DNA from: Prorocentrum cordatum
Taxonomy: Eukaryota
Reading direction: 5' to 3'
Assembly (NCBI GenBank): GCA_963575745.1
Contig: CAUYUJ010000126.1
Span: 186,001-250,000 of the forward strand
DNA: 64,000 nucleotides
The notes under the pieces are model-generated. The model had not been told where the DNA came from and made no database searches. It saw only the letters and a list, made by a program, of their open reading frames with translations. Position 1 is the first letter of the stretch. Every line of letters starts with the position of its first letter. Position numbers and translations under genes: made by a program. Shown here piece after piece: positions 1 through 38,099 of this stretch.

Positions 1-2
1 TT

Positions 3-825
3 TGTGCGTTGGCACAGCAGGCGGATCTGATGGGCGCATCCCTGGGCGACCTTCCTGTAGATAAAGGCGAACAAGTTCCAGGAGTGAGAGCGGTGCGCGG
101 TGGCTTGTTTCAGCGCGGTCGCACGAATGATTTTAGGGGCACTCGCCAGTGCGACGCAAGCGAGCTGTGGAGCGCATTAGTTGATGCTGTCTGTGTTGCG
201 GAGGTGAGTGCGTTGACGGGCATGGGAATCCTTGCGCAGCACTACACAGTGGTAGACGGGTCTATACTGGGAAACACAATCCGTCAAAGGCGGTTTTGCG
301 GGGGGTGCGGTTGGGTTTCGGATGTGTACAGACGAGAACGATCCATGACAATCCAAATGTGGGAATATGCGGATATGTTGGGTCCAGTTGGTCTTGATCA
401 TCTGGTGGTGTTGGAATCCACGCGAGCTCAGCACGGTTTGCCATGCCCACATCGACCCGCCTTGCAACGCGGAGAGGTGTGGCACGGGTGCCAGGGCCCG
501 TCGCAAACTCATGACGTGCCATCGGAGACGCCCGCAAGGTTCCTTGTTGTGGTGCTGAGCAGAAGAATGGCGGACGGAATGACCAGAGTGAATGGCCGCG
601 TAAGCGTGCCAAGGGCGTTCGAGTGGCCGGGGGCGTCGGGCTGGACATATCGCTTCCAGGGCGCGATTTGCCATCTGGAGCAGCCAGCTCATTACGTCGC
701 CTACTTCGACTGCCCCGGAGTCGGTGTCGTGAGGTTCGACGACAACGTAGTTGCGCGGATGGAGTTCCAAGATTTTGCAGAGAATCAGAAGAACCAGGGA
801 GACATTGCCCTTGTGGTATTTTCCA
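3..825 (+). other. USP/UCH (peptidase C19)-like domain, C-terminal two-thirds, within the RepHel ORF
   Basis: Motifs in the USP order: QCDASELWSALVD (QxDAxE box, 147-185), CGGC fingers (~297), PARFLVVVLSRR, His-box YRFQGAICHLEQPAHYVAY (~648-704), RFDDNVV (732-752). The Cys box would lie upstream of the window. Confidence 0.78.
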
Positions 826-3800
826 AGCACCCGACGGACGCAGACGCGCCGACAGATGCCGCCAATGAAACGGCGTCGTCAACTGAGGGGCCGCTGTCGT
901 TGCGCGACAGACACCCAATGTCGTCAGCAACAACGGACACGGCAAAAGCTATACACGAGCTGGGTGTAGCTAGCCGTGGCCATGCACAATCGGTCGCCCA
1001 CGACGGCGCTGCCAAACCGGCTCTGGAAAGCGAGGTTGCTTTGGGCCGCGTCGATGGAGAGTCGAGCTCGATGCGCGCGCCATCGAGGGCGGGTGATGGT
1101 GTAGATGGTGCGTCTCCGTCTTTGCATGGCCCTCCTGTCGGCCGCCGTCAGCCAGAGGGGGGCGCAGGTTCCACAGAGGGTGCGCGGGTGAAGCGAACGA
1201 GGCGCCGGGGGAAGCAGAAAGAAACGTTTTGCGAGTCGTATAGACCGAGCGCGACAGAGCCCACGCCGTGTTCGTCCATGATGCGTGGTCTTTCGTGCAG
1301 AAACGATCCCGAGGCAGGCGCAGGCACGGTCGCGGGTGCGGCAACAGCAGACGACAACGACAAGCCAGTTCAGGAGGGTGCCGCAGTTGGTGCAGCCCCA
1401 AAGGCGGATGCGACGCAAGAGATGTTTTTTTCAGCACGCGTCAACCCAGCGTCGAACGATCCCCGTCGGGCACGGGAAGGAGCGGTGGCAACGGCAGCGA
1501 AGTTGTTGCGGGAGATGCCTACTGCGCCCGCGGATCCAGAGGACCCGAATAAACCGTGGGGGACTGCTTTGGTCGAGAACGACGCGGTAGAACTGCCACC
1601 AACTCATTGTGCTTTCCGAGGTTGCCCATGGACTGGCGTAGACGAGTCTGAGCTTCTGAACCATGTCTGCGTAGCACACGGAGATGTCGTGCAGCCGATC
1701 GCGGACATGTATTCGCCCGCGCACTCGCTGCAGAAGCGAATGCTCACTGCTTACAGTGAACTCGTCGCGTTCGCTGTGCGGCAAGGAGCACCAGTATCGT
1801 CGTATGCGACGCACCGGAGAAGTTTGAAAGCGTACGCAGAAACAGTGACACAGGAAAAGGTAGCATCGCCGATCTGTTTCATGTGCGGCTGTTCGTTTCC
1901 GTGGGTGTCGGGACGGAAAAATAATAATATTTCGTGGGAGCGAGTGTTTGGGAGCGACGCGCGGGATGGTAGTGGACTGACGCACATGGGAGCGTGGTCT
2001 ATGTGGGAGGTGTATCAGGAGTTGAGCCTCACGGCGTATCTGAGAAGGTACAGGTATGAAGAAGGGAATGATAAACTCGATCTCCAGAAGCACATGGAGG
2101 AGTTTGACGACTGGACGGTGCGCGTATGGTGCGCGTCGTCTACCGGAGTGCCTCGGGGCCACTTGGAGTTGGTATGTTGTCCAGAGGACCAGCGGTGCAT
2201 TGCAGGATGCCGGGCGAAGGGAGAAGCCTGTGCTCAATGCGAGGTTCCGTTATGTCGGGAGTGCTTTGAAGGTATAGATTCTCCGAAGCGGGCGTGGAAC
2301 GAAACGTCCCACGTGACGGTTCCGGTGATGCCTGCGCGATGCTTGGCGAACGATCTGATGTCGTTTTACGGTCCGAAAAGCATGTACGACGAGGGGATGA
2401 CCGTCATGGAGATGATTTGTTGCAGTCCGTGCATAACGGCCATGATCTGTTTCTCGTTGGAGGTGAAGTACCAAAACTTATTTGATTCCGTCGCTGGGAT
2501 GCAGGAGACGCGAGTCGCGGCTCGGGGGAATGCAACCTCGTTCGCCCTTCCATGGCAGGGCATCTTGTCAGAGCTTCGGAGGAGGGTCGCGTCAGGAGAG
2601 CACACGGGTGGTGCGCCTGTGCCGCGTGTGGGCCACGATCTTTCCCACGTTGTTCAAATTTTGTTGAAGGTGAGTGACGCGACGTCAAAGGACAACTTGC
2701 CGACATTCATCCATCAAGCCGCCGTGCGGCGGGATGTGGTGAAGCACCACATCAAGAAGATGATCGCTAACGGGCATAGGGCTTATAGGCACGTGGACGC
2801 TGCAGGAGTAGATGCTCGCGCCGAGCAACTACCAGAGAATGGCGTACCGCCCGAACTAGTGCGGTTGCTTCCGTATGACAATCACTTGGATAAGATCATG
2901 GTGCAAAAGAATGCGACGCCGTCGGATGCGAAGCAGGCGACGGTGCAAGATGCTTGCGACGACATGGACCGACGAATTCCGAACATGGTGGTCATGGAGA
3001 GGTCATCGTTCAACGAGGTAGATGAAAACGCTACGACGGAAGCAGCTTTGCAGCACATGACGCGCGGCGTACATGAAGGAGGCGCGGACGGGCATGGTGT
3101 CGGTTGCGCAACTTCCCGTGCAGAAGCACGTGCGAGCGTGCAGTTCGCGTACGAAGCATGGCGGGATCATTTTGTCGCGTTGGCTACCAATCTATTGAGC
3201 GACGAAGACAATGGCCGCGTACGATGCACATGCAAAGGAGTGTCGGATATCGCGAGGCTCGGAGAAGCGTCGCAGCGGCACAACCTGGTGCTGATGGACG
3301 TGAACGGACGGGGGACGTGGATGGAAAAGATGCGGTTGCGCCTCGTGGTGTCTCCAGGCACGGCCATGATGAGTCAGTTTGTTCCGTGGTTCTTCGGCGT
3401 CGCTTTTCCTTTCTGCTTCAAGTTTGGGGTAGGCATGCCTGATATGCCAGAATGGTCCGAAGTGAGCCGACACCGGCGTGTCGGAGAGGCACCCCGCGTG
3501 GAACTTCCGCTGTGGACACGAATCATGACACGCCGCGTGGAATCTCAGCTCCGGCGCGACTGGCGCTTCGGGTTCACGATGTCGTCCTTGTTGTACCAAA
3601 GCGCATTGAACACGTCTCGGAGCATGCGGCTGTTTGCAGATCATGAGCAGAGGGAGGACGAATCGGGTCGCGACTTTACGTATATGGAGGAGGCTGCCAT
3701 AAGCATAGTAGAAGCACTGCGAGGAACGTACCCAGATCCAGGCACTGGACAGCGGCGCGCAGTGAATGGGGACGTGTCGAAGTTGAAATTCGTCACCTCA

Positions 3801-6800
3801 TTATCGGAGACCGCGCAGAGAATGGTGCGGCAAGCGCAGGCCATTAATAAGAAGATCGCAGGAACAAATGAGGTACGTACCATTATGCGGTTCGATACCC
3901 ACGCTGGTCGGGTGGCTCAAGGCGTCCCCGTATTTTTTACGATGTCCCCAGATGAGCGGCACAACCTCGTCATGGTACGGCTGAGTAGGTCGCGCCGAAA
4001 GGACCCAGTCAACAGGCATCGGGTGCAGGAGAAACGAGGCCCGTCGAATGGCGGGTTGTTCGAACCCGATTTCACAAGCGCATGCGGCTTGCCATTGGAG
4101 GACGAGGCGGTGGAGGGCGACGCTGACGATGTGAACATGGCGATACCCATGGAGGTTGTATGCCAAAACGTTGCAGCGGCGAAGATGCGCTTGGAGTGCT
4201 TGGCACGGGACCCTCTGGCGGGCGTCGACGGCTTTCGCACAATCGTTGGCTTGGTGTTGGAGCACCTGTTCGGGATTCGATGGTGTCCGCGGTGCCCCGA
4301 CTGTGATTGCGCCGATCTGGCAGGTAGTAATGCGAAATTGGTAGGCGGGTGCGCGGGACGAGTGGACGGTGTGTACGGGTCCATAGAAGCTCAGAAATCC
4401 GCGGGCAGTTTACACCTGCACGCACAGTTGTTTGTCCAATGCCTCCATCAGCACACGCCGCTGCACGAGATCATTCGCCGTCCTCCGGACGAGCTTAAGC
4501 GTTTGATACGCGGGTACGCAGCATTTAAAAGGCTTGTGTCGCGGCAAGTATACGCAGATGTGGCGGAATGGCAGAGGCAGAAAGAGCAAGTCGAAAAAGA
4601 CTGGCCTGCGTACAAGGGCACGGAAGAGCTCATTCAGGCAGAAGAGTACCTGAAGCAGACCGATGCGGAGGTGCAGCGAACCCTGGAGGGGGCCCAAGAG
4701 CCCAGGCCAGAGTTTGAGAGGGGGAGCGCGTCGAAATGGTGGTTGCGAAAGTATTTGAGGTGCGTGCAGAGGGGCCAGGGATACCGTCAGAACCACGTGC
4801 ACAAGTGGAGTCATCGGCATTCTAAATTTGTGCCCTTGCTCCACTGTCAACGAGATGACGACCCTCTGAAATGCAAGAGCTTTTTCCCTCGGACGACATG
4901 GCTGGTGGAGAAGACCGTGCTTTTGTGTCCAGGGTTTCTCAAAAACCGCTCCATGCCGTGTGGAGGGCGCAGAGATATGACTGGATGCCTACACGGGCCA
5001 CAAAATGAAGAGAACCTGAACGGGACATTGCCTGCATTGTTAAGCGGCGGCCTTGGATTGAATTTCAACTCCGATGTGCAGCTCCCGTACAGGTTCCCAA
5101 TTCTGGAGCAGACGCACGACGGGGACGCGTGCGCAGAGAGGTGTTGGGACGGCGCGGAGGTGACAGATATCGTGCTCGCGGCACAGCGCGCGCAGAACGC
5201 CCAGGCAGGGTACGCGTGCGACTATGGGGCGAAGCGCCTGGCGTCGTCATTCAACGAGGTGAAAGAGTGTAAGAAAGGGCACCATGCGTTAGCGGAGAGA
5301 GTGCAAGGGCGCAGCGCCTCGTACGTGGCGCACCGCCACATCACGCGGTTACTCTCGGATCTGTACGGGAAAGGGATCGTGCGGTCCGCGCAAGAGAGTG
5401 TGAACTTGCGCGCGTACTCGGATGTGCGAGACGTGACGGCTGCGGAGAGTATTAAGACGTCGAAAACAGCGATGGTCCCTGGGTTTGACGTTGTGAGGAT
5501 GGTAGAAAAGGAGTGCGGAGTGGCGTCGGAGCGATCAGACCCTGGCAGAGTTCATCTTGAACGCGATGGTAGGCGCGCAAAGAGGCCGCGCGTGATAGCA
5601 AAGAATCCAGCATTCTTGTACGGCATGAGACCGTTGGATGCCAAGTGGGCCCCGGAACTACGGTACCTTTCTGTGTATGAGTTTTTCCGCTATTGGCGAA
5701 TTGAAATGACAAGGTGGTCCACGAAGATGAAGAAAAGGAAAGAGGTAGCAGAGGGGGACGAGGAAGAGACGGAGGACGAGGAGGATGAATGCCAGTATCA
5801 CGCGGTACTCACGGCGAGCGGCAAGACGAAGGTCCGTGAGGCACGGCAGAGGGGAGTGGAAGAAGCACCGTTATTGGCAGGAATCGATTATGTCATTCGC
5901 GGCGATGGCTGCGACGCATGGGTAGCGTTTCCTGATGTTGAAAGCATGGAAACGTCACGGCACAAGTGGGTGTTGGTTCGGAACGAGAGTCCGCGGAACC
6001 CGAGCTTTCATGGTGCACCGCAGCCGAAGCATCGGCCAGGGGAAGCAGATAGGAACGCGCTCATCTTGATGGCGTATTTTCGATCGTTCACTCTGCAAGA
6101 CACAGACTTGGACGGGGTTTCGAGGGTGTCAGAGTGGTGCACTGGTGAGAAGACGCTGGCAGAAGCCGCACGTGAGTGGTTGGACGGAGGACTGCCTTGC
6201 GAGGAGTCGAAGAGGTATGTACAGAATTTCATGACCGTCGTCGACATGCGTCCCGATGGGGAGGACGCTGGAAGGAAGCACGAGGATGACTTGTTCAGCG
6301 ACGAAGATGTGGACGTCGACGAGCTCGACGAGGGTGTCCAGCGGCGCGTGCACGTTGGAGGCACGCGCCTAGAGGACGATACAAGGGAAACGACAGGCGC
6401 CGTTGCAGAAGCGCGTCGGTTGAGTGCAGAAGCCATGGCATTATCGACGCGTGTGTGGGGTCGAGAGGCGGGCGGAGATGAAAGGGGCAAACGAGGGGCG
6501 TGGGCGAGAACAGACGGGCGCGTAGAGGTGCCAGGGGAAGAGTTGAAGCGACGGGAAGCAGACGCTCGGGCATCTCAGACAAAGATGAGAGGTGACGGGT
6601 TGGAGGGTTGCGAAATTGAAGAGGGGAGAGTGAGACAGGTGCCTGCAGGCGGCGCTGAGGAGTTGCGGCGGTGGAAAGCACGACTGCGCGGACCTAGCAG
6701 CGGACGCGACGTAGATATGAATGGGAAACAAAGAGAAGTCGTAGAGAAGGTCATAGAGAGGATGATCGTTGAGTGTCAAGAAGATGAGAGGACAATCGGC

Positions 6801-9800
6801 AGTTCGGAGCCGTTGCTGTGGATGCTGCACGGAGGCCCAGGCACAGGGAAGAGCTTTGTGGTAGAGACCTTACGGAAACACGTGTTCGAGAGAGTCATGG
6901 GCTGGGAACACGGGCTGGACTTCCAAGTGGCTGCGTTACAAGCTACGAACGCGTCCAGTCTGGATGGTCACACGTTGCACGCCGCGTTTGGGATGACTCC
7001 GTACGGTGCCAGTACGGAAACCAGTAAGAAGCGCGGAGAGCCGGGTGCAAAGAAAGTAGAAGCAGCGAAGCGAATTCAACAGTGGCGTTGGCTCATCATC
7101 GACGAAATCAGTATGGTCAGTGCAAATTTTCTTGCAGAGCTGGATGCGCATTTGCGGTCTGTGATGTCGGCAGCGAGGCAAGGGAAGGTGGGTGCCGATA
7201 AGGTAGACCGTCCGTTTGGAGGTGTGAACGTGTTATTCTGCGGTGATTTCTACCAGTTGGAACCTCCCGGCGGAACTCCATTGAATGCGATTCCGACGTC
7301 GTGGGTACGGAAGGCGAGGCAGTATGCGCCAGGCGCCGAAGAAGATCATGGTCAGTACATCTTCTGGGGCGACGGGCCAGGGTCCGTGGCGGGGATGACG
7401 GAATTGGTAGAGTGCAAGCGCTTGAAAGAGAAGGACGAGTGGTTCCTGGGAGTACAAGATGAGTTCCGACGGGGAGCTCTGACTGAGAGGACGCACCAGT
7501 TTCTGCATGGGAAACCTACAGACGTTCCAGGGTCGTGGTTGAATGAGAAGCCAATGTGTGGTTCGCAGGTCTGCATGCAGAACGTGGAAGCTATCGCAAA
7601 AGACAACGAGCTGGAGTGTGGGTTCTGTGCAGAGGAAAGAAAGCGTCGATGTCTCGTAGCCACTAGTGCCGCAGACGAACGGTTCGCACTTCCGCAGTTC
7701 GTCGAAGCCACTGCTATCTATCCCAATCAGGATGTGAAGTGCAAGGTAGCGCGGCAGCGGGCCGTGGACTGGGCTGCGTGCGAGAAGAAACAGATTTCGT
7801 GGGTTTACGCGCGGGATAAGGCAACGCACGCGACGTATCAGGAAAGACCATACACCTCAGCAGACAAAGTGCGGTGGCTCGGATACCACGACAAGGCCTG
7901 TGCAGACATGCCGGGATGGTTACCGCTTGCCGTGGGCATGCCAGTTGTCCTGACGGACCATTTGGACCGATCAGAGAAGCAATTGTTACGAGGGTGCCGG
8001 GCGACGATACACTCATGGGTGGTAGATGAAGAAGAAGAAGACGTGCAGGACATGTCGTCGAGAGTCCTGCGTAGGATGCCGAGACAAATCGTGCTGGACT
8101 TTCACACCGACAAGTGGACGCTCAAAAGCATGCCGGGGCCAGGGCTGTATCCCATAGTCCCTCGTTCTCGGACGTGGCATCTGGACTCGTATCGAAAGAA
8201 GCCCGTGTTGGGGGTGCGACGGAGACAGTTTATAATTTCGCCTGGGTTGGCGTGCACGGCGCACGCAGCGCAAGGGCGAACACTCGACGCGGTAATTGCG
8301 GACTTGGAGGAAGGCAGAAACGTGAGCTGGATGTCGAGCTACGTGGCCATAACGCGCGTGAAGGCTCGGCAGAGTCTGCTCATCTATCGGCCATTTTCGA
8401 GACAGCCGTACACTCAAGGGGAATTGGAAGGCACGAGGTTGCTGTTGCAGAAGTTGCGGGGGGAAGCGTTGCCGTGGCCCGACATCGAGGAGAGGTTGAT
8501 GCCGCGGAAAGCATGCGGGAAATGTCAGAAGGTGAAGGAAAAGGCTGAATTCAGCACAAATGAGTTCGGCGCGAAGTCGGGCCCGAGCTTCTGCTGCGAG
8601 TGCGCGGAGATGTTGAAGGGAGCAGGGGAAAAATGGTGCACGACTTGTGACCAATGGGCCGAGATGGTCTCCAGAGTGGGGGGGGGCGAGTCCGAAAGGG
8701 TCAGAGTATTCGTGAGGACAAGCAAATGCGACAGGTGCGCAGGGCCACCAGCCCGGAGGAAGTCGCGGAAAGAGTCTCAGGGGTGGCAGCAGAATGTACG
8801 AGACAAATTCAAGATCCGTTGCGGTGAATGCTGTGAATTCATGAAGACGGAGGCAGAAATTACGGCGAACCAGTACGCCACGAAGGGCGCAGGGGAGAAG
8901 CTCTGCAAGAAGTGCGCAGGGAAGAGGAAAGGCGGATGGAACAAGTGGAGCCAATCGCAGAAGAAAGCGGAGTGGATGAATGCAACGAACACTGCTCGAC
9001 AAAGCGCGCGCCAGGAACAGCCGCTGAGGTGTTCGGAGTGCCCGAAAGACGCAGACGGAAGAGGGCGGGAATTCACGGACGCGGCGCATCTGACAACAGA
9101 ACAAATCAACCACTATTATAAAACGGGCGCAGCCCACAGGCCAGTGAAATGCCGCGACTGCGACGCGCGTCACAAGCGATCGCGGGTGTTCAGGTGCTTC
9201 GCGTGCCCGAAAGAAACAGATGGGAAAGAGCGAGAATTCACGGACAGGACGCACCTAACAGATGAGCAAGTGAATCATTTCTTCAGGAAGGGTTCGGGCC
9301 ATCGCCCAGTCAAGTGCCGCGCGTGCCAGGAAGAACGCAATCAGCCGCGAGTGTTCACGTGCTCCGCGTGCCCGACAGAAGCAGATGGGAAAGAGCGAGA
9401 ATTCACAGACAGGGCGCATCTGACAGATAAGCAGGTGGGGGAGAAGCTCTGCAAGAAGTGCGCAGGGAAGAGGAAAGGCGGATGGAACAAGTGGAGCCAA
9501 TCGCAGAAGAAAGCGGAGTGGATGAATGCAACGAACACTGCTCGACAAAGCGCGCGCCAGGAACAGCCGCTGAGGTGTTCGGAGTGCCCGAAAGACGCAG
9601 ACGGAAGAGGGCGGGAATTCACGGACGCGGCGCATCTGACAACAGAACAAATCAACCACTATTATAAAACGGGCGCAGCCCACAGGCCAGTGAAATGCCG
9701 CGACTGCGACGCGCGTCACAAGCGATCGCGGGTGTTCAGGTGCTTCGCGTGCCCGAAAGAAACAGATGGGAAAGAGCGAGAATTCACGGACAGGACGCAC

Positions 9801-10292
9801 CTAACAGATGAGCAAGTGAATCATTTCTTCAGGAAGGGTTCGGGCCATCGCCCAGTCAAGTGCCGCGCGTGCCAGGAAGAACGCAATCAGCCGCGAGTGT
9901 TCACGTGCTCCGCGTGCCCGACAGAAGCAGATGGGAAAGAGCGAGAATTCACGGACAGGGCGCATCTGACAGATAAGCAGGTGGAGCACTTCTGCGCGAT
10001 GGGCTCGGAGCATCGCTCGGTGGTGTGCCGAGCGTGCCACGAGCAAAGGCAGGTGGCGAAGAAGTTGGAATGTTCCGCATGTCCCCTGAAGAAGGACGGA
10101 TCAAAGCCTACGTTCACTGACGGCGGCCATCTGTCGATAGCCGAGAAGAAGAATTATTTCCACCGAGGCACTCTGGTGGTTTGCGCCAAGTGCTATATGG
10201 CGGGGCGGGCGCCGCGGAAAGACCCGCCGAAACGCCCTGCGGAGGCAAGTGACGAGCACGGCGGGAAGCAATGCAAGTTGCGAGGAATCTAA
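3..10292 (+). CDS. Giant Helitron/Helentron-like RepHel transposase polyprotein (USP-like protease + C2H2 + DUF6570-like + HUH Rep + PIF1 helicase + Zn-finger array), 5'-truncated by the window edge
   Basis: Uninterrupted 3427-aa ORF with the frame open at the left edge. Rep motifs: VFFTMSP (~3930), SIEAQKSAGSLHLH (HUH, ~4380-4421), YACDYGAK (two Tyr, 5211-5234). PIF1/SF1B motifs: GGPGTGKS (6831-6854), LIIDEISMV (~7092-7118), FGGVNVLFCGDFYQLEPP (~7215-7270), TAHAAQGRTLD (~8256), YVAITRV (~8340). Confidence 0.92.
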   Translation, partial: CALAQQADLMGASLGDLPVDKGEQVPGVRAVRGGLFQRGRTNDFRGTRQCDASELWSALVDAVCVAEVSALTGMGILAQHYTVVDGSILGNTIRQRRFCGGCGWVSDVYRRERSMTIQMWEYADMLGPVGLDHLVVLESTRAQHGLPCPHRPALQRGEVWHGCQGPSQTHDVPSETPARFLVVVLSRRMADGMTRVNGRVSVPRAFEWPGASGWTYRFQGAICHLEQPAHYVAYFDCPGVGVVRFDDNVVARMEFQDFAENQKNQGDIALVVFSKHPTDADAPTDAANETASSTEGPLSLRDRHPMSSATTDTAKAIHELGVASRGHAQSVAHDGAAKPALESEVALGRVDGESSSMRAPSRAGDGVDGASPSLHGPPVGRRQPEGGAGSTEGARVKRTRRRGKQKETFCESYRPSATEPTPCSSMMRGLSCRNDPEAGAGTVAGAATADDNDKPVQEGAAVGAAPKADATQEMFFSARVNPASNDPRRAREGAVATAAKLLREMPTAPADPEDPNKPWGTALVENDAVELPPTHCAFRGCPWTGVDESELLNHVCVAHGDVVQPIADMYSPAHSLQKRMLTAYSELVAFAVRQGAPVSSYATHRRSLKAYAETVTQEKVASPICFMCGCSFPWVSGRKNNNISWERVFGSDARDGSGLTHMGAWSMWEVYQELSLTAYLRRYRYEEGNDKLDLQKHMEEFDDWTVRVWCASSTGVPRGHLELVCCPEDQRCIAGCRAKGEACAQCEVPLCRECFEGIDSPKRAWNETSHVTVPVMPARCLANDLMSFYGPKSMYDEGMTVMEMICCSPCITAMICFSLEVKYQNLFDSVAGMQETRVAARGNATSFALPWQGILSELRRRVASGEHTGGAPVPRVGHDLSHVVQILLKVSDATSKDNLPTFIHQAAVRRDVVKHHIKKMIANGHRAYRHVDAAGVDARAEQLPENGVPPELVRLLPYDNHLDKIMVQKNATPSDAKQATVQDACDDMDRRIPNMVVMERSSFNEVDENATTEAALQHMTRGVHEGGADGHGVGCATSRAEARASVQFAYEAWRDHFVALATNLLSDEDNGRVRCTCKGVSDIARLGEASQRHNLVLMDVNGRGTWMEKMRLRLVVSPGTAMMSQFVPWFFGVAFPFCFKFGVGMPDMPEWSEVSRHRRVGEAPRVELPLWTRIMTRRVESQLRRDWRFGFTMSSLLYQSALNTSRSMRLFADHEQREDESGRDFTYMEEAAISIVEALRGTYPDPGTGQRRAVNGDVSKLKFVTSLSETAQRMVRQAQAINKKIAGTNEVRTIMRFDTHAGRVAQGVPVFFTMSPDERHNLVMVRLSRSRRKDPVNRHRVQEKRGPSNGGLFEPDFTSACGLPLEDEAVEGDADDVNMAIPMEVVCQNVAAAKMRLECLARDPLAGVDGFRTIVGLVLEHLFGIRWCPRCPDCDCADLAGSNAKLVGGCAGRVDGVYGSIEAQKSAGSLHLHAQLFVQCLHQHTPLHEIIRRPPDELKRLIRGYAAFKRLVSRQVYADVAEWQRQKEQVEKDWPAYKGTEELIQAEEYLKQTDAEVQRTLEGAQEPRPEFERGSASKWWLRKYLRCVQRGQGYRQNHVHKWSHRHSKFVPLLHCQRDDDPLKCKSFFPRTTWLVEKTVLLCPGFLKNRSMPCGGRRDMTGCLHGPQNEENLNGTLPALLSGGLGLNFNSDVQLPYRFPILEQTHDGDACAERCWDGAEVTDIVLAAQRAQNAQAGYACDYGAKRLASSFNEVKECKKGHHALAERVQGRSASYVAHRHITRLLSDLYGKGIVRSAQESVNLRAYSDVRDVTAAESIKTSKTAMVPGFDVVRMVEKECGVASERSDPGRVHLERDGRRAKRPRVIAKNPAFLYGMRPLDAKWAPELRYLSVYEFFRYWRIEMTRWSTKMKKRKEVAEGDEEETEDEEDECQYHAVLTASGKTKVREARQRGVEEAPLLAGIDYVIRGDGCDAWVAFPDVESMETSRHKWVLVRNESPRNPSFHGAPQPKHRPGEADRNALILMAYFRSFTLQDTDLDGVSRVSEWCTGEKTLAEAAREWLDGGLPCEESKRYVQNFMTVVDMRPDGEDAGRKHEDDLFSDEDVDVDELDEGVQRRVHVGGTRLEDDTRETTGAVAEARRLSAEAMALSTRVWGREAGGDERGKRGAWARTDGRVEVPGEELKRREADARASQTKMRGDGLEGCEIEEGRVRQVPAGGAEELRRWKARLRGPSSGRDVDMNGKQREVVEKVIERMIVECQEDERTIGSSEPLLWMLHGGPGTGKSFVVETLRKHVFERVMGWEHGLDFQVAALQATNASSLDGHTLHAAFGMTPYGASTETSKKRGEPGAKKVEAAKRIQQWRWLIIDEISMVSANFLAELDAHLRSVMSAARQGKVGADKVDRPFGGVNVLFCGDFYQLEPPGGTPLNAIPTSWVRKARQYAPGAEEDHGQYIFWGDGPGSVAGMTELVECKRLKEKDEWFLGVQDEFRRGALTERTHQFLHGKPTDVPGSWLNEKPMCGSQVCMQNVEAIAKDNELECGFCAEERKRRCLVATSAADERFALPQFVEATAIYPNQDVKCKVARQRAVDWAACEKKQISWVYARDKATHATYQERPYTSADKVRWLGYHDKACADMPGWLPLAVGMPVVLTDHLDRSEKQLLRGCRATIHSWVVDEEEEDVQDMSSRVLRRMPRQIVLDFHTDKWTLKSMPGPGLYPIVPRSRTWHLDSYRKKPVLGVRRRQFIISPGLACTAHAAQGRTLDAVIADLEEGRNVSWMSSYVAITRVKARQSLLIYRPFSRQPYTQGELEGTRLLLQKLRGEALPWPDIEERLMPRKACGKCQKVKEKAEFSTNEFGAKSGPSFCCECAEMLKGAGEKWCTTCDQWAEMVSRVGGGESERVRVFVRTSKCDRCAGPPARRKSRKESQGWQQNVRDKFKIRCGECCEFMKTEAEITANQYATKGAGEKLCKKCAGKRKGGWNKWSQSQKKAEWMNATNTARQSARQEQPLRCSECPKDADGRGREFTDAAHLTTEQINHYYKTGAAHRPVKCRDCDARHKRSRVFRCFACPKETDGKEREFTDRTHLTDEQVNHFFRKGSGHRPVKCRACQEERNQPRVFTCSACPTEADGKEREFTDRAHLTDKQVGEKLCKKCAGKRKGGWNKWSQSQKKAEWMNATNTARQSARQEQPLRCSECPKDADGRGREFTDAAHLTTEQINHYYKTGAAHRPVKCRDCDARHKRSRVFRCFACPKETDGKEREFTDRTHLTDEQVNHFFRKGSGHRPVKCRACQEERNQPRVFTCSACPTEADGKEREFTDRAHLTDKQVEHFCAMGSEHRSVVCRACHEQRQVAKKLECSACPLKKDGSKPTFTDGGHLSIAEKKNYFHRGTLVVCAKCYMAGRAPRKDPPKRPAEASDEHGGKQCKLRGI
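8514..10195 (+). repeat. C-terminal tandem CxxC...CxxC zinc-binding modules of the RepHel protein
   Basis: 165-bp (55-aa) period units C..CP...DG..REFTD..HLT..Q..H....G..HR.V.C..C starting at ~9030, 9195, 9360, 9576, 9741, 9906 and 10071. Three shorter CxxC-pair modules precede them from ~8514. Confidence 0.85.
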
Positions 10293-10299
10293 CCGCGAG

Positions 10300-11910
10300 T
10301 CGCGCGCGCGTCGTCTTCGGAGCTCTCTTGGGCCGTCCTCGGCCTCTCTGGGCCCGTCTTGGCGCCCTCTTGGCCCGTCGCGGGGCCCTCGTGGAGGCTA
10401 CTTGGACCGTCTTGGCGCGGTCTCGGGAGGCTCTCGGGCCGCCCCGGAGCGCCCCAGAAGGCGCGCGTGCGGAAAAAATACACGTTTTACGAAGAGAACG
10501 GGCAATTTTATACAGCCAGAGGCCCTCCAGGGGCGCATAGTGAAAGCCTAGTGGGGCGTCTTGGGGGGCCTCTGCAGCCGTCGGGAGGCCGTCGTCAGCG
10601 TTTTGGATCGCTCTTGGACCGTCGAGGACCATGTGGAGCTCTCGACGAGGCCGCTCGGACCGCTCCTGGAGCGCTCTCGGAGCCGTTGTCGGAGCCCTTT
10701 TGGGCCGTCTTGGACGTGTGTTGGCGCGTCTTGGGGCCCTGGAGGGCTCTGTGGGAACCCTCTTGGGGGCGTCTTGGGCCTTCTGGGAGCGGGTTTGGGT
10801 GGCTCTGGGGCCGTCCAGGAGCGGGGGGCACCCCCAAAGGCGCACTTTTGAAATAGTATACGTTTGACGAAGGAAACGGAGGTTTTTTTGCGTCTAGAGG
10901 CCCTCTTGGATCGCATCGTGGATGCCTCTTGGGGCGTCTTGGGGGCCTCTTCAGCCGTTTGGAGGCCGTCGTCAGCGTTTTCGATCGCGCTTGGACGGTC
11001 GAGGACCATGTGGAGCTCTCTTCGAGGCCACTCGGGCCGCTCCTGGAGCGCTCTCGGGGCCGTTGTCGGAGCCCTTCTTGGCCGTCTTGGACGTTAGTTG
11101 GATCGCATCGTGGATGCCTCTTGGGGCGTCTTGGGGGCCTCTTCAGCCGTTTGGAGGCCGTCGTCAGCGTTTTCGATCGCGCTTGGACGGTCGAGGACCA
11201 TGTGGAGCTCTCTTCGAGGCCACTCGGGCCGCTCCTGGAGCGCTCTCGGGGCCGTTGTCGGAGCCCTTCTTGGCCGTCTTGGACGTTAGTTGGCCCGTAT
11301 TGGGGCCCTCGACGGGCCCCGTCTTGGGGCCCGTCTTGGAGGCGTCTTGGACAGTCTGGGAGCGGGTTTGGGGGCCCTGGGGCCGTGCAGGAGCGGGGGT
11401 CACCCCCAAAGGCGCACGTGGGGAAAAACATATACGTTGTACAAAGGAAACGAGCGATCTTTTGCGTCTAGAGGGCCTCTTGGGGGGAATCTTGGATGCC
11501 TGTGGGGGCGTCTGGGGAGGCCTCGTGAGCCGTCGGGAGGTCGTCGTCGATGTTTCTGATCGCTCTGGGACCGTCTTGGACCATGTGGAGCTTCGGAGAG
11601 GCAACTCGGAGCGCTCCTGGAACGCTCGTGGGGCCATTTTCGGAGCCCTCTTGGGCCGTCTTGGACGCCTGTTGGCCCATCTTAGGCCCTCTCGGGGTCT
11701 GTGGGGGCCCTCTGCGAGGCTTCTGGGGCCGTCTGGGGGCGGGTTTGGGAACCTCTTTGGCCGTCGGGGAGCATCGGAAAGATCCACAGCTGAATGTTTC
11801 GAAAATGTACATTTCACGAAGGGAATGGCCCAATTTTGGCGTCGAGGGACCCTTGTGGAACGCATCTCGGAGGCCCTCGGGGGAGCTCGTGGGGACCCCT
11901 TCTGCCGTCG
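10300..11910. repeat. Diverged ~380-bp tandem repeat (TCTTGGGGCC-rich family), about 4 units
   Basis: An A-rich anchor (aaaatacacgttttacgaag-like) recurs at ~10475, 10852, 11425 and 11801. The second unit carries an exact 192-bp internal duplication. Confidence 0.8.
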
Positions 11911-11911
11911 A

Positions 11912-14447
11912 GGACGCCTCGTGGCCCGTCTTCGGGCAAACTTGGACGTCTTGGAGCGCTCGTGGGGCGTCCCAAACCCATTTCGAGGCCACCAGACGCG
12001 TCCCTACACGATTTCACGTGTTTTTTTCCACGTTTTTCGGGAGCGGATGAGACCTCCGGGGGTCCGGGCCCGTCCGGCCGGACCCCCCCCCCCCCCCCCA
12101 AATGAACCGGACCGGGCTCCCGGGGGAGGGGTTTGGGGGGGGGGACATCTGGACGCCTCGTGGCCCGTCTTCGGGCAAACTTGGACGTCTTGGAGCGCTC
12201 GTGGGGCGTCCCAAACCCATTTCGAGGCCACCAGACGCGTCTCTACACGAATTTCACGTGTTTTTCCACGTTTTTCGGGAGCGGATGAGACCTCCGGGGG
12301 GTTCCGGCGTCCGGTCCGGCCGGACCCCCCCCCCCCCCCCTCCAAATGAACCGGACCGGACTCCCGGGGGAGGGGTTTGGGGAGGGGGAACATCTGGACG
12401 CCTCGTGGCCCGTCTTCGGGCAAACTTGGACGTCTTGGAGCGCTCGTGGGGCGTCCCAAACCCATTTCGAGGCCACCAGACGCGTCCCTACACGAATTCA
12501 CGTGTTTTTCCACGTTTTTCGGGAGCGGATGAGACCTCCGGGGTGTTCCGGGCCGTATCCGTCCGGACGCCCCCCCCCCCCCCCCTCCAAATGAAACCGG
12601 ACCGGACTCCCGGGGAGGAGTTGGGGAGGGGGGACATCTGGACGCCCTCTGTGGCCCGTCTTCGGGCAAACTTGGGACGCTTGGAGCGCTCGTGGGCGTC
12701 CGCAAACCCCTTTCGAGGCCCCCAGACGCGTCCTCTACCCTAATTTCACTGTGTTTTTCCCGTTTTTCGGGAGCAGTTGATACCTCCGTGGGGTTTCCGG
12801 CCGGTCCGCCGACGCCCCCCCCCCCCCCCTTCCAAATGAACCGGACCGGACTCCCGGGGGAGGGGTTTGGGGAGGGGGGACATCTGGACGCCTCGTGGCC
12901 CGTCTTCGGGCAAACTTGGACGTCTTGGAGCGCTCGTGGGGCGTCCCAAACCCATTTCGAGGCCACCAGACGCGTCCCTACACGAATTCCACGTGTTTTT
13001 TTCCACGTTTTTTGGGAGCGGATGAGACCTCCGGGGGGGTCCGGCCGTCCGGCCGACCCGCCCCCCCCGCCCTCCAAATGAACTCGGACCGGACTCCCGG
13101 GGGAGGGTGTTTTTGGGAGGGGAAACATCTGGACTCCTCGTGGCCCGTCTTCGGGCAAACTTGGACGTCTTGGAGCGCTCGTGGGGCGTCCCAAACCCAT
13201 TTCGAGGCCACCAGACGCGTCCCTACACGAATTTCACGTGTTTTTCCACGTTTCTCGGGAGCAGATGAGACCTCCGGGGGGTTCCGGCCGGTCCGGCCGG
13301 ACCCCCCCCCCCTGCGCCCTTTCCACCCAAAACCGGACGGACTCCCGGGAGGGGGTTTTGGCGGGAGGGGGGTCATCTGGACGCCTCGTGGCCCGTCCTT
13401 CGGGCAACTTGGACTCTTGGAGGCGCTCGGTGGGGACGTCCCGCCACCCATTTCGAAGGCCCCAGACGCGTCCTCTAAACACGAATTTCACGTGTTTTTT
13501 CCACTTTTTTTTCACGGGAGCGGATGAGATCTCCGGGGGGTTCCAGGCCGCCCGGGGCCGTCCAGGGCCGTCCGGCCGGACCCCCCCACCCCCCTCCAAA
13601 TGGACCGGACCAGGCTCCCGGGGGAGGGGTTTGGGGAGGGGGAACATCTGACGCCTCGTGGCCTGCGTCTTCGGGCAAACTTGGGTAACGTCTTTTGGAG
13701 GCTCGTGGGGCGTCCCAAACCCATTTCGAGGCACCAGACCGCGTCTCTACAAATCGAATTTCACGTTCGTTTTTTTCGTTTCCACGTTTTCTTTTTTTTC
13801 GGGAGCTTGATGAGACCTCCGTGGGGTTCCCGGCTCGGTCCGGCCCGGGACCCCCCCCCCCCCCCCCCTCCAAATGAACCCGACCGGACTCCCGGGGGAG
13901 GGGTTTGGGGAGGGGGAACATCTGGACGCCTCGTGGCCCGTCTTCGGGCAAACTTGGACGGCCCGTCTTCGGGCAAACTTGGACGTCTTGGAGCGCTCGT
14001 GGGGCGTCCCAAACCCATTTCGAGGCCACCAGACGCGTCTCTACACGAATTTCACGTGTTTTTCCACGTTTTTCGGGAGCGGATGAGACCTCCGGGGGGT
14101 TCCGGCCGGGTCGTCGCGGACCCCCCCACCCCACGCCCCTCCAAATGAACCTGGACCGGACTCCCGGTGGAGGGGTTTGGTGGAGGGGGAACATCTGACG
14201 CCTCGTGGCCTCTTCGGCAAACTTGGGACGTCTTGGAGCGCCCGTGGGGCGTCCACCCAAAACCCAATTTCGTTTTTTTTCCACCATACGCGTCCCTACA
14301 CGAATTTCACTTGTTTTTTCCACGTTTTTTACGGAGCGGAATGAGCCCTCCGGGGGGTTCCGGCCGGTCCGGCCGGACCCCCCCCCCCCCCCTCCAAATG
14401 AACCGGACCGGACTCCCGGGGAAGGGGTTTGGGGAGGGGGAACATCT
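11912..14447. repeat. ~245-bp tandem satellite, about 10 copies
   Basis: The unit ggacgcctcgtggcccgtcttcgggcaaacttgg...gggaacatct starts at ~11912, 12151, 12396, 12639, 12886, 13131, 13379, 13650, 13924 and 14197. Copies differ mostly by homopolymer-type indels. Confidence 0.95.
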
Positions 14448-15344: not shown

Positions 15345-15945
15345 GGGGAGGGAGGAGTGAGGAGGAAGAAGAGAGGATAGCGGAGGAAAGAGAACGGAGG
15401 GAGGAGGAACGAGGAGGGAGGAGGCAGGCGGGGAGGAGGGAGGAGGGGCGGGAGGAGGGGCGGGAGGGGAAAGCAAGGGGGAGGAGGAGGAGGAGGTAGG
15501 AGGAGAGGACGAGACGAGAGGGAGGAGCAGGAGGAGGAGGAGGATGAGGAGGAGGACGCGGACGAGGACCAGGACGAGGAGGAGAGGAGAGGAGCGAGAT
15601 GAGAGATGAGAGGAGAGGAGAGGGAAGAGAGGAGAGGAGAGGAGAGGAGAGGGGAGGAGAGGAGAGGAGAGGGGAGGGAGGAGAGGAGAGAACAAGAGAG
15701 AGGAGAGGGAGGGAGAGGAAAGGAAAGGAGAGGAGAGGAGAGGAAAGGAGAGGAGAGAAGAGGAGAGAGGAGGAGAGGAAGAGGGGGAGGAGGAGGATGA
15801 GGAGGAGGAGGAGGAGGAGGAGGAGCATGAGGAGGAGGAGGAGGAGGAGAAGAAGGAGGACGAGGAAGAGGAGGAGGAGGACGAGGAAGAGGAGGAGGAG
15901 GAGGAGGAGGACGAGGAAGAGGAGGAGGAGGAGGAGGAGGAGGTA
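15345..15945. repeat. Polypurine (GAG/GGAGA)n low-complexity tract
   Basis: About 600 bp of almost only G and A. Confidence 0.95.
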
Positions 15946-32090: not shown

Positions 32091-32247
32091 AAGCGCGGGA
32101 AATGATATCGAAGTGCAATAAGGGAATATAGGTGTGTAATGTAAATGGAGATTGGTTAAAGGATGTAGGATGTTGATCTCCAGAATGTTTCGTTCGTGGC
32201 TTGGCCCCTAGGGCTGGCGCGCTGCCGCGGGCTCCTGGGCCCGAGGC

Positions 32248-32575
32248 CTCCTCCTGCTCCTCTTATTCCTCCTCTTCTTCCTCCTCCTCCTTCTCCTCCT
32301 CCTTCCCCTCCTTCTTCTCCTCCCTCTTTTCCTCCCCCGTCTCCTCCTCCTCCTCTTCCTCCCCCACTTCCTCCTCCTCCTGCTCCTGCCCCTCCTCCTC
32401 CTCCTCCTCCCCCCCCCCTCCTCCCGTTCCTCCTCCTCTTCCTCCTCCTCCCCCTCCCCCTCCTCCTCCTCCTCTTCTTCCTCCTCCTCCTCATCATCGC
32501 AGATTTCTTGGATATCCTTCTCCCTCCTCTCCCTCCTCCCCTTCCTCGTCCTCCTCCTCCTCCCCCTCCCCCCCG
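32248..32575. repeat. (CCT)n polypyrimidine tract
   Basis: Degenerate cct/ctt run. Confidence 0.95.
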
Positions 32576-34727
32576 CGGCGGCGGCTGACCCCGCGGTGCC
32601 CTTTGCGCTCCGTGCGCCAGCGCAGGGGATCCAGCGCCGTTCCAAGAACCCCGCGCGGACCTCCCAGAGATCATGTTAATGCCGTGGTTTGTTCCTTTAG
32701 AGGGGGAGGACGGAGGCAAACAAGGAGGGAGGCCTGAATCTCACAGCACGCTTGATTCACAGCCAGCAGCTTAGAGTTCGATTGGGAAAGCGATGTGCAC
32801 AGACTAGACAGCCAGAAAATGACAAGTCACTCAGCATACGGCGAGGGCGGAGGAAACGACGCAAAGCCCACTAGGGTACAAATTACAGCGAGGGCGGAGG
32901 ACACCGAGCGAAGCCCAAGACGAATCGCTTTGAACAGGTGAGGTTGTATAGAGTATGGTCGTACTTTCCTTATCATGTGACGCTGGAACAGTCGCGAGAT
33001 CTAAGAGTGCAAGCGGCTTCGTTTTGGGCGGGAGTTTTTCGGTGATTCGCTCGTACAGGTATGGGAGAAGCGGATCGAGACAGGGTCCGCCTAAGACAGA
33101 CCCGACAGCAAGGATCCACTCACATCTGGGCCTCCTGCTCAGCCAGCACAGCGGCTGGCAAGAGGATCGGCTGGGTACAGCGCTAAAACGCGGAAGTGTC
33201 TGTCTCGTTGATGTTAGTTGCCCCCCCCCCCGAGGAAATGTTGCAAAAACAAGTTGGGGATGTCTCGGGCGAAAGCTTGGTTTGGGTTTTCCGCTTTATC
33301 CATCACAAGGCAATGCTTTTTTTATTGGACAAATGCATGTCGTTCGTGCCCGCTCGAGGAGAGGGCGCCCGCCGCATCGGATCCTTGACAAATCACCGGT
33401 CCGCAGGCCCCCGCTGTTCCCAGATGAGCAAACATTGATTTCGCCCGTGCCCGCTCGAGGATGGCACGCCCCCCCACACAGACTCTTTTACGAATAACGG
33501 TGCGCGGGGCCCCATTAGACCGCAGAAGGCGCCAGGACAGCCCAGGACGCGCCAGGAAGCCTCGGGAGGGCGGACCCAGCGAAATGTGCAGAGGAGTTTG
33601 GCCTTGGGCCTGTGGGCGCCCTTTTACGGATCATTGTCGAGGGACCGCGGATCCACAGTAATCTATAATAGATTGTGGCGCTGGGAGCGCGGGTCCATGA
33701 TGAATGAAAAGGGGTCATGGCTCTAGAAGCACGTGCGCAAGGGGCTTGGGACTGGAGTGTATATTGCAGCATCGTCGACATAGTTTGGGTTTACTCTGGT
33801 CCACTTGCTGTTGTTCATGAGCATCAGCCTCAAAATCGCGTTTATCTTTTCAAGTATTGGATTGCTGCGCCGCATCTTAGTTGTATTTGTTGAAACATAA
33901 ACATGCTCAATGTCAATCCTCATCGTTCCACTCGACGCCATAATGATATTGTCTCGCTTCTTTTTCCACCATTTTTGATGATTTCTGCGTGTGCATCATG
34001 CCCAGGGCAAGGGCAAGGCGAAAGGCTACAAGTGAGCCCTGGTGACGATCGCCGGAGCCGAGCTTCGTTGCGAGATCTGCTGCGTCCATCTCACCGTCGT
34101 GTTTCTCCTCACCCTTCCTCGCTCTAATCTTCACCTTCCTCCCAGACTCCAGCTCGGCTCAATGATCGCGCTCGTGGCCAGCCATAGCGCGAGGGAGTGA
34201 GGAGGATAATCAGGAATATGCTTGTGAACGGTCGGGGGGCGCATGTCTATACGTATCCTTTGTGAGCGTTCAGTGAACTCGCCTATATTATATTTGATCG
34301 CGATGTTGCTGCAAGTTCTTACGCAACTCTTCCCTTTAATCACGCGCTTCCCGTCCATGTTAGGAAAAGTCTTGAAAACGAGTGTTTCGCCAGAGACATC
34401 CTGTCCGAATCCCGATAGTTGCTGTCGTAGCTTAAGACGCCTTATGCTATAAGTGAGTGTTTTATCCGAGACATCCTCGGGCAATGGAGATTATGAAATC
34501 TCTTGTCTAAATTTCGGAACTTCAGAAATAACAGTTTCGTCCGAGACATCTTCGGAAACATGTGATGTGCCAAGAGTTGTTTTGAGACACCTTTTCGGAG
34601 AACTCTTGGATGGCTTCCAAGATGGCTAAAGAAGCGCAATTAAATCAATTGTATGCGTTTCGCTCGAGAAATCTTCTAGAATTCGAGCGGGTTCTCGAAA
34701 TCACCAGATCATGATGGACATTCCGAT

Positions 34728-35272
34728 GTAGGTGAGGGTCTGTATGGTTAGGATATGTAGGGTTAGGGTATGTAGGGTTAGTAGGGCCTGTAGGGTTTGC
34801 AGGGTCTTCAGGGTTAGTGTATGTAGGGTGAGGGTCTGTAGGGTTTGGGTATGTAGGATTTGGGTATGTAACGTTCAGGTCTCTAGGGTTAGTAGGGTCT
34901 GTAGGATTCGGGTATGTAGGGTTAGGGTCTGTGGGGTGTGGGTATGTAGGGTTAGATTTTTCAGGGTTCGGGTCTTCGGGTCTGTAGGGCTAGTAGGGTC
35001 TGTAGGGTTAGGGTATGTAGGGTTGGGGGTCTATAGGTACCGTTTGTAGGGTTAGGGTCTGTAGGGCCGGTAGGGTCCGTAGGGTTTGGGTCTGTTGGCT
35101 TAGGAGGGTATACAGGGTTAAGGTTTGTATGGTCGGGGCTTGTGGTTACGGCATGTAGGTTTCGTTGGGTCTGTAGTGTTCGGCGTTGTAGGGTTAGGAC
35201 TTGTAGGGTTAGGGTATGTAGGGTTAGAGTATGTCGAGTCAGGGTCTGTGGGGTGAGTAGGGTCTGCAGGGC
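34728..35272 (+). repeat. Degenerate telomere-like minisatellite (~15-bp GTAGGGTTAGGGTAT units)
   Basis: Dozens of tagggt/ttaggg hexamers arranged in 15-bp and 9-bp units. Confidence 0.85.
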
Positions 35273-36174
35273 GAGTAGATTGGGAAACACAGGAAGGAGG
35301 AAGCGGGAAGTGCACAGAGGAGGGAGACGATTCTCAGAAATTTGTTTTCGAACCTTCGGGGTGCGTATGTCCATAGGTATCCGTTGTGATATTTCGGAGA
35401 GCTCGCGTATGCTGCATTTGATCGTGATGGTGCTGTACGTGCTCGTGCTTTTCATCGTTTTTTTGTTCTGCGCTTCCCGTTCATGTCAGGAAAGGTTCAC
35501 ATTGACGGTGGTAGTAATGATGCTGCTGAGGGAAAACGGGTGAGTAGGTGTGAGGATTGCACAATCTGTCCACGGAAAACAACAACCCATTCAGGAAGTG
35601 GGGAGAAGTCGATGCAGGGTCGGCTGCTGTAGTTTGCAAACGTTCGTTTGTTGTGCGATATGGGCTCTTGACGTGGCGCTCGCACCAGCAAATTTGGTCG
35701 GTTGAAGAAGGCGTGTGTTGTTCGGCAGCGCGGTGTTCCCAAATGTAACAGGTTGCAGGCGCGTCCTGCCGGCGCAGGGAAACTCGCCGAGCCGGTTGAA
35801 CCAAGGCTGACTGAGTTGGCCGATCTTGCCGAAAATATGAATGGCATCTCGCCGTTGCCACTGGCATGTTTGTGCGTCCGGGGGCCACGCGGCGGGCAAG
35901 CCAGCTAGTGAAGATTGAGACATGGTGCGGGACATGCTCGTTGGCGAAGGTGGTTCAGATCGCCGCTATCGGTGAAAGCATATGCCAGGTGCATGGTCAC
36001 GCGCCCGCCTACAATCCCGCGGCGCAAGCTGCTGACATCGATGCGATTCGCATGCCCGCCCTATAACCTCATGAAGCAATTAAGGACCCCCTGCCCCCCT
36101 CCGGCGAAACGATATCCCCCCCGCACCTGGAAGCGTTAACTCCGGCACCTGCGGCTAGGAGGAGGAGGAAGCAC

Positions 36175-37612: not shown

Positions 37613-38099
37613 AGAAAATGTGCCTACTCGTTTACTCGCACTCGTACTCTTATTCGTATTCCTACTCCTATTCCTATACTCCTAGTCCAACTCCAATTCC
37701 ACCTCCCTCTCCTCCTACTCCTACTCCAACTCATACTTCTACGAGCCTCACGACTCCTGCGCGGCCCAGGGAACCCCATAAGAATTTCAGATGGCCAAGA
37801 GGTTCCAGAAAAATCCAAGACGGTCCAAGACGTATCGCAAGGGGTTATCATAGCAGGGCCCTGGAGATGCCTTCAGCCAATGGCCCCTCGCCTTCCCTCA
37901 GTGGCCACGGCCTTTCAGGGCCCAGGGAGCTCTTATTCTCAGAGGCCTTCGGCCGATCCGCCTGACCTCCTCCCCCATCGGGGTCCAGGGCCTCTCAGGG
38001 CCCAGGGAGCTCTTATTCTCAGAGGCCTCCGGAGGCAGTAGTCCAGGTACTGGCAGGAGTCCAGGTACCCAGAAAGAAGCAGTGGCGCCTTATAGTTGT

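Follow-up and report, generated by a model that had tools for sequence, protein, structure and literature searches.

A probable group 2 Helitron-like transposase with an N-terminal USP-type putative deubiquitinase in Prorocentrum cordatum

The 5′ end of a 64,000-nucleotide (nt) stretch of Prorocentrum cordatum contig CAUYUJ010000126.1, hereafter the window, is occupied by one uninterrupted open reading frame (ORF) of more than 10 kb. We propose, with an overall probability of about 80%, that this ORF belongs to an autonomous group 2 Helitron-like element and encodes a fused Rep nuclease and helicase (RepHel) preceded by an N-terminal ubiquitin-specific protease (USP) domain that acts as a putative deubiquitinase. 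We are highly confident that the ORF is the transposase gene of a USP-bearing group 2 RepHel element; that its USP works as an active deubiquitinase in the service of transposition is, judged from its sequence, a possibility a little short of even odds. The principle of a USP/UCH domain in group 2 elements is already in print. New here are the dinoflagellate host group, the single-ORF arrangement, the variety of deubiquitinase-type modules within one family and an intact, apparently young copy.

Results

The ORF and its RepHel core

The ORF, given like all element coordinates in window numbering on the plus strand (Table 1), runs as a single stop-free frame of 3429 codons from position 3 to the TAA codon at 10290-10292, and is open at the 5′ edge of the window from the first bases. 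For its own base composition a stop-free frame of this length has a chance probability of ~1e-62, and the remaining five frames across 3..10292 contain 39 to 142 stops each. The second-longest stop-to-stop frame of the window, whose G+C content is 57-65%, comprises 631 amino acids (aa) and lies inside a GGT repeat. Because it stays free of stops over 3429 codons in an interval where the other five frames are full of them, the ORF is real and far beyond chance. A previous inspection of the DNA letters without database searches (the sequence-only reading) had already singled out this frame of more than 10 kb.

The central and C-terminal parts of the protein carry the hallmarks of a rolling-circle transposase. 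The HUH motif is present as HLH at aa 1471-1473 and the two-tyrosine motif as GY..DY..K at aa 1736-1744; when the window protein is aligned with 23 relatives (24 sequences in all), both motifs occupy columns with at least 90% conservation. C-terminal to Rep, the PIF1 family (PF05970) is matched with 59.9-62.2 bits at aa 2268-2421; the Walker A and B motifs lie at aa 2277 and aa 2364, respectively. PIF1 helicase structures in the PDB are matched down to E 8e-10, one of these matches extending to aa ~2801. Upstream of Rep and in the same ORF, Pfam recognizes DUF6570 at aa ~777-932 with 31.3 bits (cut-off 24.3), preceded by a C2H2-like motif, C-x4-C-x12-H-x4-H, at aa 536-559, which is kept in the homologues P0005 and P0048. 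The sequence-only reading had named the Rep with HUH and two-tyrosine motifs, the PIF1 helicase, a DUF6570-like segment and a C2H2 finger at ~1605-1680, and each of these was recovered.

The C terminus is formed by an array of 20 CxxC motifs between aa 2838 and 3397, that is, ten pairs, in line with the roughly ten CxxC-pair modules noticed earlier. Scanned singly, the modules reached the cut-off of no Pfam family, the best being zf_Tbcl with 20.0 versus 24 bits; in the protein Atlas, Stc1-domain clusters are nearest to the array (score 0.83), which is to be taken as a lead only. Two tandem 546-nt copies within the array differ by one base, encode identical protein and are the source of three of the ten CxxC pairs. 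Because public contigs skip 112 nt (runs X1 and X3 of the comparison described below) and 215 nt (X1 only) within 8419-8842, the number of zinc modules seems to vary between copies.

No Pfam match to an apurinic/apyrimidinic (AP) endonuclease (Exo_endo_phos) was obtained with the whole protein and seven overlapping pieces at E values up to 10. Instead of the C-terminal AP endonuclease that defines Helentrons sensu stricto, the protein ends in the CxxC array, and since the endonuclease is absent, we regard the element as Helitron2-like rather than as a Helentron. Likewise, the window ORF (P0001) gave no Pfam match to OTU and no OTU Cys/His motif by pattern, and Pfam found no ubiquitin-like domain in the whole protein and its pieces. 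The sequence-only reading had suggested that the USP might process the polyprotein; this idea was dropped because the ORF contains no ubiquitin-like domain. DUF6570 has been described as a marker of group 2 that lies in the same ORF as RepHel (Li et al., NAR 2024, PMC11417382, in the sections used here). We place the element in group 2 because this published marker is present and an endonuclease match is absent.

The N-terminal USP domain

By homology, aa 1-277 of the ORF are predicted to form the truncated C-terminal ~4/5 of a USP (peptidase C19/Pfam UCH) domain, since a profile of this segment matches USPs and two collinear homologues score as UCH. A phmmer search with aa 1-290 against 1.84 billion representative proteins returned 14 matches, 11 of which were scanned with Pfam. 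Ten of the 14 are short fragments, 49-89% identical to the window sequence; two longer proteins, P0035 (E 7.6e-11) and P0037 (E 1.7e-8), share ~30% identity and score 52.5 and 48.7 bits for UCH. The partial Prorocentrum cordatum protein P0026 is 87% identical to aa 159-290. An alignment of the window piece with 12 of the 14 matches (A1; P0036 and P0038 were omitted as repetitive or unrelated) was converted to a profile and compared with the PDB sequences. Among its 48 matches at E ≤ 1, 43 are USPs, as are all 16 at E ≤ 0.001. The best match is USP36 (E 3.4e-7), in an alignment that spans the QQD box to the His box and the Asp. In it, H230 and D246/D247 align with GHY...ND of USP36, the catalytic His and Asp/Asn positions, and these positions are kept in all six aligned sequences of A1 that cover the site.

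Two homologues reach further upstream. P0043 (670 aa) shares 60% identity with window aa 1-235 (E 1e-98); its UCH score is 41.3 bits, and its Cys box is canonical. P0048, a protein of 1325 aa encoded on a 5-kb contig, follows window aa 1-1016 collinearly with 57% identity and combines UCH (51.9 bits, profile positions 2-239) and DUF6570 (32 bits) in one ORF. Its Cys box is canonical as well, with the Cys 37 residues before the residue that matches window residue 1. By homology, the Cys box of the window copy is thus expected ~37 codons upstream of window base 1, and its ORF extends upstream by at least 248 (P0048) to 421 (P0043) codons. No loose contig ends occur at the first base of the window among the matches listed. 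The USP-like boxes claimed by the sequence-only reading are therefore borne out for the QQD-like, His and Asp positions, which the A1 profile, P0048 and P0043 support. The Cys box that it predicted upstream is seen in both collinear homologues and is not visible for the window copy.

In a comparison of metagenome contigs with the single protein, 43 pattern matches appeared, none of which was confirmed by tblastn. P0043 (aa 5-287) also has an N-terminal segment in common with the RepHel relative P0010 (aa 44-342), with 43% identity over ~300 residues. This segment, of unknown function and by homology located upstream of the window, links the USP-bearing subfamily to a RepHel relative.

Relatives share the core and differ at the N terminus

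A search with window aa 560-1760 yielded 23 relatives of 1996-4020 aa with 32-44% identity, one of which (P0022) is named Polarella glacialis. P0022 and P0026 are the two homologues that bear species names, and these names together with the G+C content suggest a dinoflagellate host close to Prorocentrum. Helitron_like_N is above the Pfam cut-off in 20 of the 23, PIF1 is found in 19, DUF6570 in 18 and UCH in one. Because 20 relatives pass the Helitron_like_N cut-off, the Rep homology of the window protein holds by transitivity. According to BLASTP, the conserved core begins in 20 of the 23 at window aa ~450-480 (nt ~1350-1440), just before the C2H2-like motif, and in the other three further downstream; P0019 shows a weak match (24%) that starts earlier, at window aa 263. 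The region N-terminal of the core differs among the relatives.

One type of N terminus is a second USP. P0005 and its cluster mate P0039 contain a full UCH domain (112 bits) in which the Cys, QQD and His boxes are all intact, and P0040, an hhalign partner of A1, contains only the Cys-box end of this type. The P0005-type and window-type USPs sit at different distances from the core, and a profile of the window type matched none of the N termini of the 23, the P0005 USP among them. From their sequences, the two types would be either very old or separate acquisitions.

Another type is a module of ~230 aa that eight of the 23 relatives (P0007, P0010, P0013-P0016, P0018 and P0019) have in common (alignment A2), with an invariant N-x-C-L-x-D box, in which P0010 has Ser for Cys, and a late H-x-D box. 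By sequence, the best match of its profile in the PDB has E 1, and Pfam scans of five members gave nothing relevant. A model built from five members reached a predicted local distance difference test score (pLDDT) of 81.4 and a predicted template modelling score of 0.66. With this model, the best Foldseek hit was an OTU protein (E 4.4e-3) and none was at E ≤ 0.001. VIA-align superimposed it on OTU deubiquitinases with Z up to 9.9 and root mean square deviations of 3.5-4.0 Å over 119-132 residues, and all 50 entries that it listed are OTU-group deubiquitinases as judged by their titles. These Z values indicate an OTU-type fold, not a function, and we regard the module as a candidate for a divergent OTU subfamily among the RepHel proteins of dinoflagellates. 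In addition, P0021 has a canonical OTU motif that scores just below the cut-off (20.2 versus 23.3 bits), and in P0009 pattern matching alone points to an OTU-like Cys motif. The class of deubiquitinase hence varies within the family, and a deubiquitinase is a recurrent N-terminal accessory of the relatives.

Copy number

Public contigs aligned to nt 1-9000 (run X1) gave 1589 pieces, of which 259 are at least 99% identical, 533 fall at 95-99%, 532 at 90-95% and 265 below 90%. Because these pieces form a graded cloud of identities, the element family is multi-copy, with young and old members. The window copy is probably young, and the many near-identical pieces fit the recent activity that the sequence-only reading had claimed. 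Related pieces also occur in the small-share marine metagenome runs X2 and X3 and in organism B (X6). All 30 bins of nt 1-9000 are covered by contigs in both X1 and X3. Summed contig depth, which is not a copy number, is 69-91 in X1 over the USP part versus 55-340 over the rest, apart from a low-complexity peak at 5701-6000; since the cover there resembles that of the rest, the repeated unit includes the USP part. The stretch at 5701-6000 is acidic and GAG-rich, with a summed depth of up to 3038 (X6) and many loose ends. Because such a simple repeat is common to unrelated sequences, its peak is no sign of extra copies.

Other features of the window

Directly 3′ of the stop codon lie tandem-repeat arrays built from units of ~192 nt (10529-11289, with two copies 100% identical) and ~245 nt (~10 copies, 11912-14447). 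Satellite-like cargo is known from the 3′ part of some group 2 elements, and these arrays may be the 3′ part of the present one. Beyond position 10300, 156 ORFs of at least 140 aa were found, 107 of them not low-complexity; a Pfam scan of 87 of these gave a single match, RVT_1. Minus-strand ORFs adjoining the RVT_1 ORF occupy other frames, a pattern compatible with a degraded retroelement.

Between ~18600 and 31900 the minus strand contains a long series of ORFs of 140-324 aa in shifting frames with strong negative AT skew. They gave no Pfam match, and the protein Atlas offered no lead for the longest (score 0.76); the region may be what is left of a large coding element of unknown type. A degenerate TTAGGG-like array with a 15-nt period and ~35 copies is found mid-window (34726-35254), and several blocks of 42-nt tandem repeats, ~15 copies each with 73-80% matches, at 36088-39230. 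Long tri- and hexanucleotide arrays (GGA, GGT, CCT and GCACCA) at 15351-15943, 45537-47407, 32247-32492 and 40473-40705 produce long spurious open frames.

Table 1. Coordinates of the element and of further features in the 64,000-nt window
Feature	Position	Strand	Basis or details
ORF, probable USP-RepHel polyprotein of a group 2 Helitron-like element	3..10292	+	3429 codons, open 5′, TAA 3′
Predicted USP (peptidase C19/Pfam UCH) domain, C-terminal ~4/5, aa 1-277	3..833	+	Homologues
QQD-type box, aa 48-55	144..167	+	Aligned with QEDAHEF box of USP36
USP His box (H230 in AHYVAY, aa 229-235) and RFDDN (aa 244-250)	687..752	+	USP36 alignment
C2H2-like zinc-finger motif, aa 536-559	1608..1679	+	N-terminal part of core common to relatives
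DUF6570 (PF20209)	2331..2798	+	31.3 bits, cut-off 24.3
Rep (HUH nuclease) region	3804..5234	+	HLH nt 4413-4421; Y1737 and Y1741 nt 5211-5225; weak Helitron_like_N
PIF1-family superfamily 1B (SF1B) helicase	6804..8405	+	Walker A nt 6831-6854; Walker B nt 7092-7112; Pfam and PDB
Array of 10 CxxC pairs, zinc-ribbon or treble-clef-like	8514..10193	+	Motif count
Two tandem 546-nt (182 aa) copies within the zinc array	8892-9437, 9438-9983	+	545/546 nt identical
Tandem-repeat arrays directly 3′ of the stop codon	10293..14461	.	Units ~192 and ~245 nt
ORF with reverse-transcriptase domain RVT_1	58338-59483	-	Pfam 48.1 bits

Discussion

Helitrons move by a rolling-circle mechanism in which an HUH nuclease nicks the DNA and becomes covalently linked to it through a tyrosine, a PIF1 helicase peels the strand off in 5′-3′ direction, and a circular intermediate is formed. 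By analogy, the HUH/two-tyrosine Rep described here would nick one strand at the end of the element and remain bound to it via a 5′-phosphotyrosine, the PIF1-type 5′-3′ helicase would then peel the nicked strand off, and the peeled strand would be circularized and inserted elsewhere. The C2H2-like finger and the ten CxxC pairs probably serve to bind DNA or protein partners. The USP may remove ubiquitin or a ubiquitin-like modifier from the transposase or from transposition factors, which would protect the transposase and its cofactors from ubiquitin-dependent degradation or restriction. We infer this role because the catalytic positions are retained, because the domain stays open and collinear between copies at 57-60% identity, and because deubiquitinase-type modules of two classes recur at this end of the protein.

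Several observations weigh against the proposed reading. In the window copy itself, Pfam UCH reaches 13.4 bits (E 0.06) with aa 1-300 and so remains below the cut-off of 23.9, whereas the collinear homologues score 51.9 and 41.3 bits; the match covers profile positions 80-241 of 254 and leaves the Cys-box end uncovered. In the C19 profile check that the sequence-only reading had proposed, the score thus stays below the cut-off for the truncated window piece and lies above it for the collinear homologues. The catalytic Cys and the start codon of the window copy lie outside the window. A single-sequence AlphaFold model of aa 1-290 was unusable (pLDDT 33.6), and a word-indexed search of aa 1-320 against proteins of 1885-6001 aa found no relative. 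Helitron_like_N, at aa 1268-1474, scores 20.9 bits against a cut-off of 28.9. Between the two USP types of the family, the alignment is restricted to the Cys box (16 of 30 residues, E 2e-4 in a single comparison), so that a common selected function would follow from recurrence and not from conservation. Finally, the contig depths do not translate into copies, and the 64-kb window contains no second copy of the element: tblastn with P0001, P0005, P0007, P0015, P0021, P0035 and P0037 found nothing beyond nt 10300.

The main rival explanation, an unlikely one in our view, is that the USP is a passenger, namely a captured fragment of a host USP gene that lies in frame with the transposase and is non-catalytic or decaying. 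Helitron-like elements often capture host gene fragments. The domain is strongly diverged, scoring 41-52 bits even in full homologues in addition to the low score in the window, the residue that precedes the catalytic His is not the customary Gly (AHY, SHY, NHY), and the family varies in its N-terminal extensions. P0035 and P0037, the closest USPs that do not look element-like (~30% identity), are found on short contigs without visible RepHel, which would fit a host donor, and the HELIANO study, in the passages relevant here, regards such domains as gene captures (PMC11417382). A decaying passenger, however, would have to account for a segment that has kept its open frame and its collinearity between copies of no more than 57-60% identity, for an intact Cys box in both homologues that reach that site, for the retention of the His and Asp positions wherever the alignment covers them, and for the recurrence of two classes of deubiquitinase-type modules at the same protein end in relatives.

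That the ORF is instead a domesticated host gene of RepHel ancestry, single-copy and syntenic, is very improbable. In favour of this reading, the frame is unbroken for 10.3 kb amid many repeats and no element ends were identified; against it, the 1589 contig pieces on 9 kb in X1 range from above 99% to below 90% identity, related pieces occur in marine metagenomes, public data hold many short, broken homologous ORFs, and Rep and helicase have retained all their catalytic motifs. Least probable of all is an assembly artefact, either a chimeric repeat join at the USP-RepHel junction or an error in the length of the zinc array: the window begins inside the USP domain, the array holds a 546-nt tandem duplication with a single mismatch and contigs skip 112 nt and 215 nt near it, but the independent contig encoding P0048 has the same order of USP, linker, C2H2 and DUF6570, collinear over 1016 residues, and the contig cover of nt 1-9000 is complete in X1 and X3.

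Helraiser is the mechanistic model for rolling-circle transposition. Like the element described here, this group 1 Helitron transposase (PDB 7lcc) has an HUH/two-tyrosine Rep followed by a PIF1-like helicase, but the match between them is faint (E 0.081) and restricted to the helicase part, and Helraiser is without DUF6570, USP and C-terminal zinc array, all three of which are present in the window ORF.

Closer counterparts are found in group 2. The HELIANO study lists 20 accessory domains as stably included in Helitron-like elements, and UCH (PF00443), one of them, is almost exclusive to group 2 (HLE2) and enriched in its subgroups c and d, whose members are largely lungfish and axolotl elements (PMC11417382). 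As in the window, these UCH-bearing elements combine a RepHel of the Helitron_like_N/PIF1 kind, an upstream DUF6570 and UCH as an accessory. In contrast, UCH is counted there among ‘different ORFs’, whereas the USP of the window shares one 10-kb ORF with RepHel, and the hosts are mostly lungfish and axolotl, whereas the host of the window is apparently a dinoflagellate. The sequence-only reading had considered the fusion non-standard and the lineage distinct, and had itself named a fusion already on record as evidence to the contrary; the catalogued UCH domains of group 2 are in part just that. As far as the portions of the HELIANO text and supplement considered here go, they contain no dinoflagellate terms (PMC11417382), and no description of a USP-RepHel fusion in dinoflagellates was found in the literature searched.

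A second parallel is provided by Helentrons. Tegument-like (VTD) domains encoded by Helentron ORFs show activity towards ubiquitin and NEDD8, and OTU domains occur beside or in place of them (Erven et al., Nat Commun 2022, PMC9741609). In the sections of their paper that concern us, the authors propose that the deubiquitinase shields proteins on which transposition depends and that the activity can come from different classes. The zebrafish Helentrons DrT1 and DrT2 resemble the window protein in that the deubiquitinase lies inside the RepHel ORF, N-terminal to Rep (PMC9741609). They differ from it in class and in evidence, being of the tegument-like/OTU class with measured activity, whereas the window protein has a USP/C19 domain known from sequence and no AP endonuclease. 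Among dinoflagellates, the RepHel CAE7237458.1 of Symbiodinium microadriaticum has been assigned a position basal to Helitron2 and Helentron combined (Heringer and Kuhn, MBE 2022, PMC8788227). It is likewise Helitron2-like and without AP endonuclease; a deubiquitinase domain is not mentioned in the passage of that paper describing it.

Our analysis adds a dinoflagellate lineage and a clean single-ORF fusion to the catalogued link between group 2 Helitron-like elements and USP/UCH domains. For the annotation of dinoflagellate genomes this is of practical relevance, as fragments of such ORFs are now filed as unnamed proteins or generic helicases. That one end of the transposase accommodates both USP and OTU-fold modules lends weight to the published proposal that a deubiquitinase of any class is of advantage to rolling-circle transposons, and the intact copy described here is a concrete protein with which this proposal can be tested. 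The deubiquitinase classes found in this position comprise two non-aligning USPs, a canonical OTU and a divergent OTU-fold module unrecognized by Pfam. We put forward tentatively, and with the odds against it, that this N-terminal slot has been filled repeatedly and independently by differing deubiquitinases, and that the removal of ubiquitin is selected, near-obligatory and counters host restriction. If true, rolling-circle transposition would be subject to ubiquitin-dependent restriction by the host, and the family in the window would represent a young, active, USP-armed lineage.

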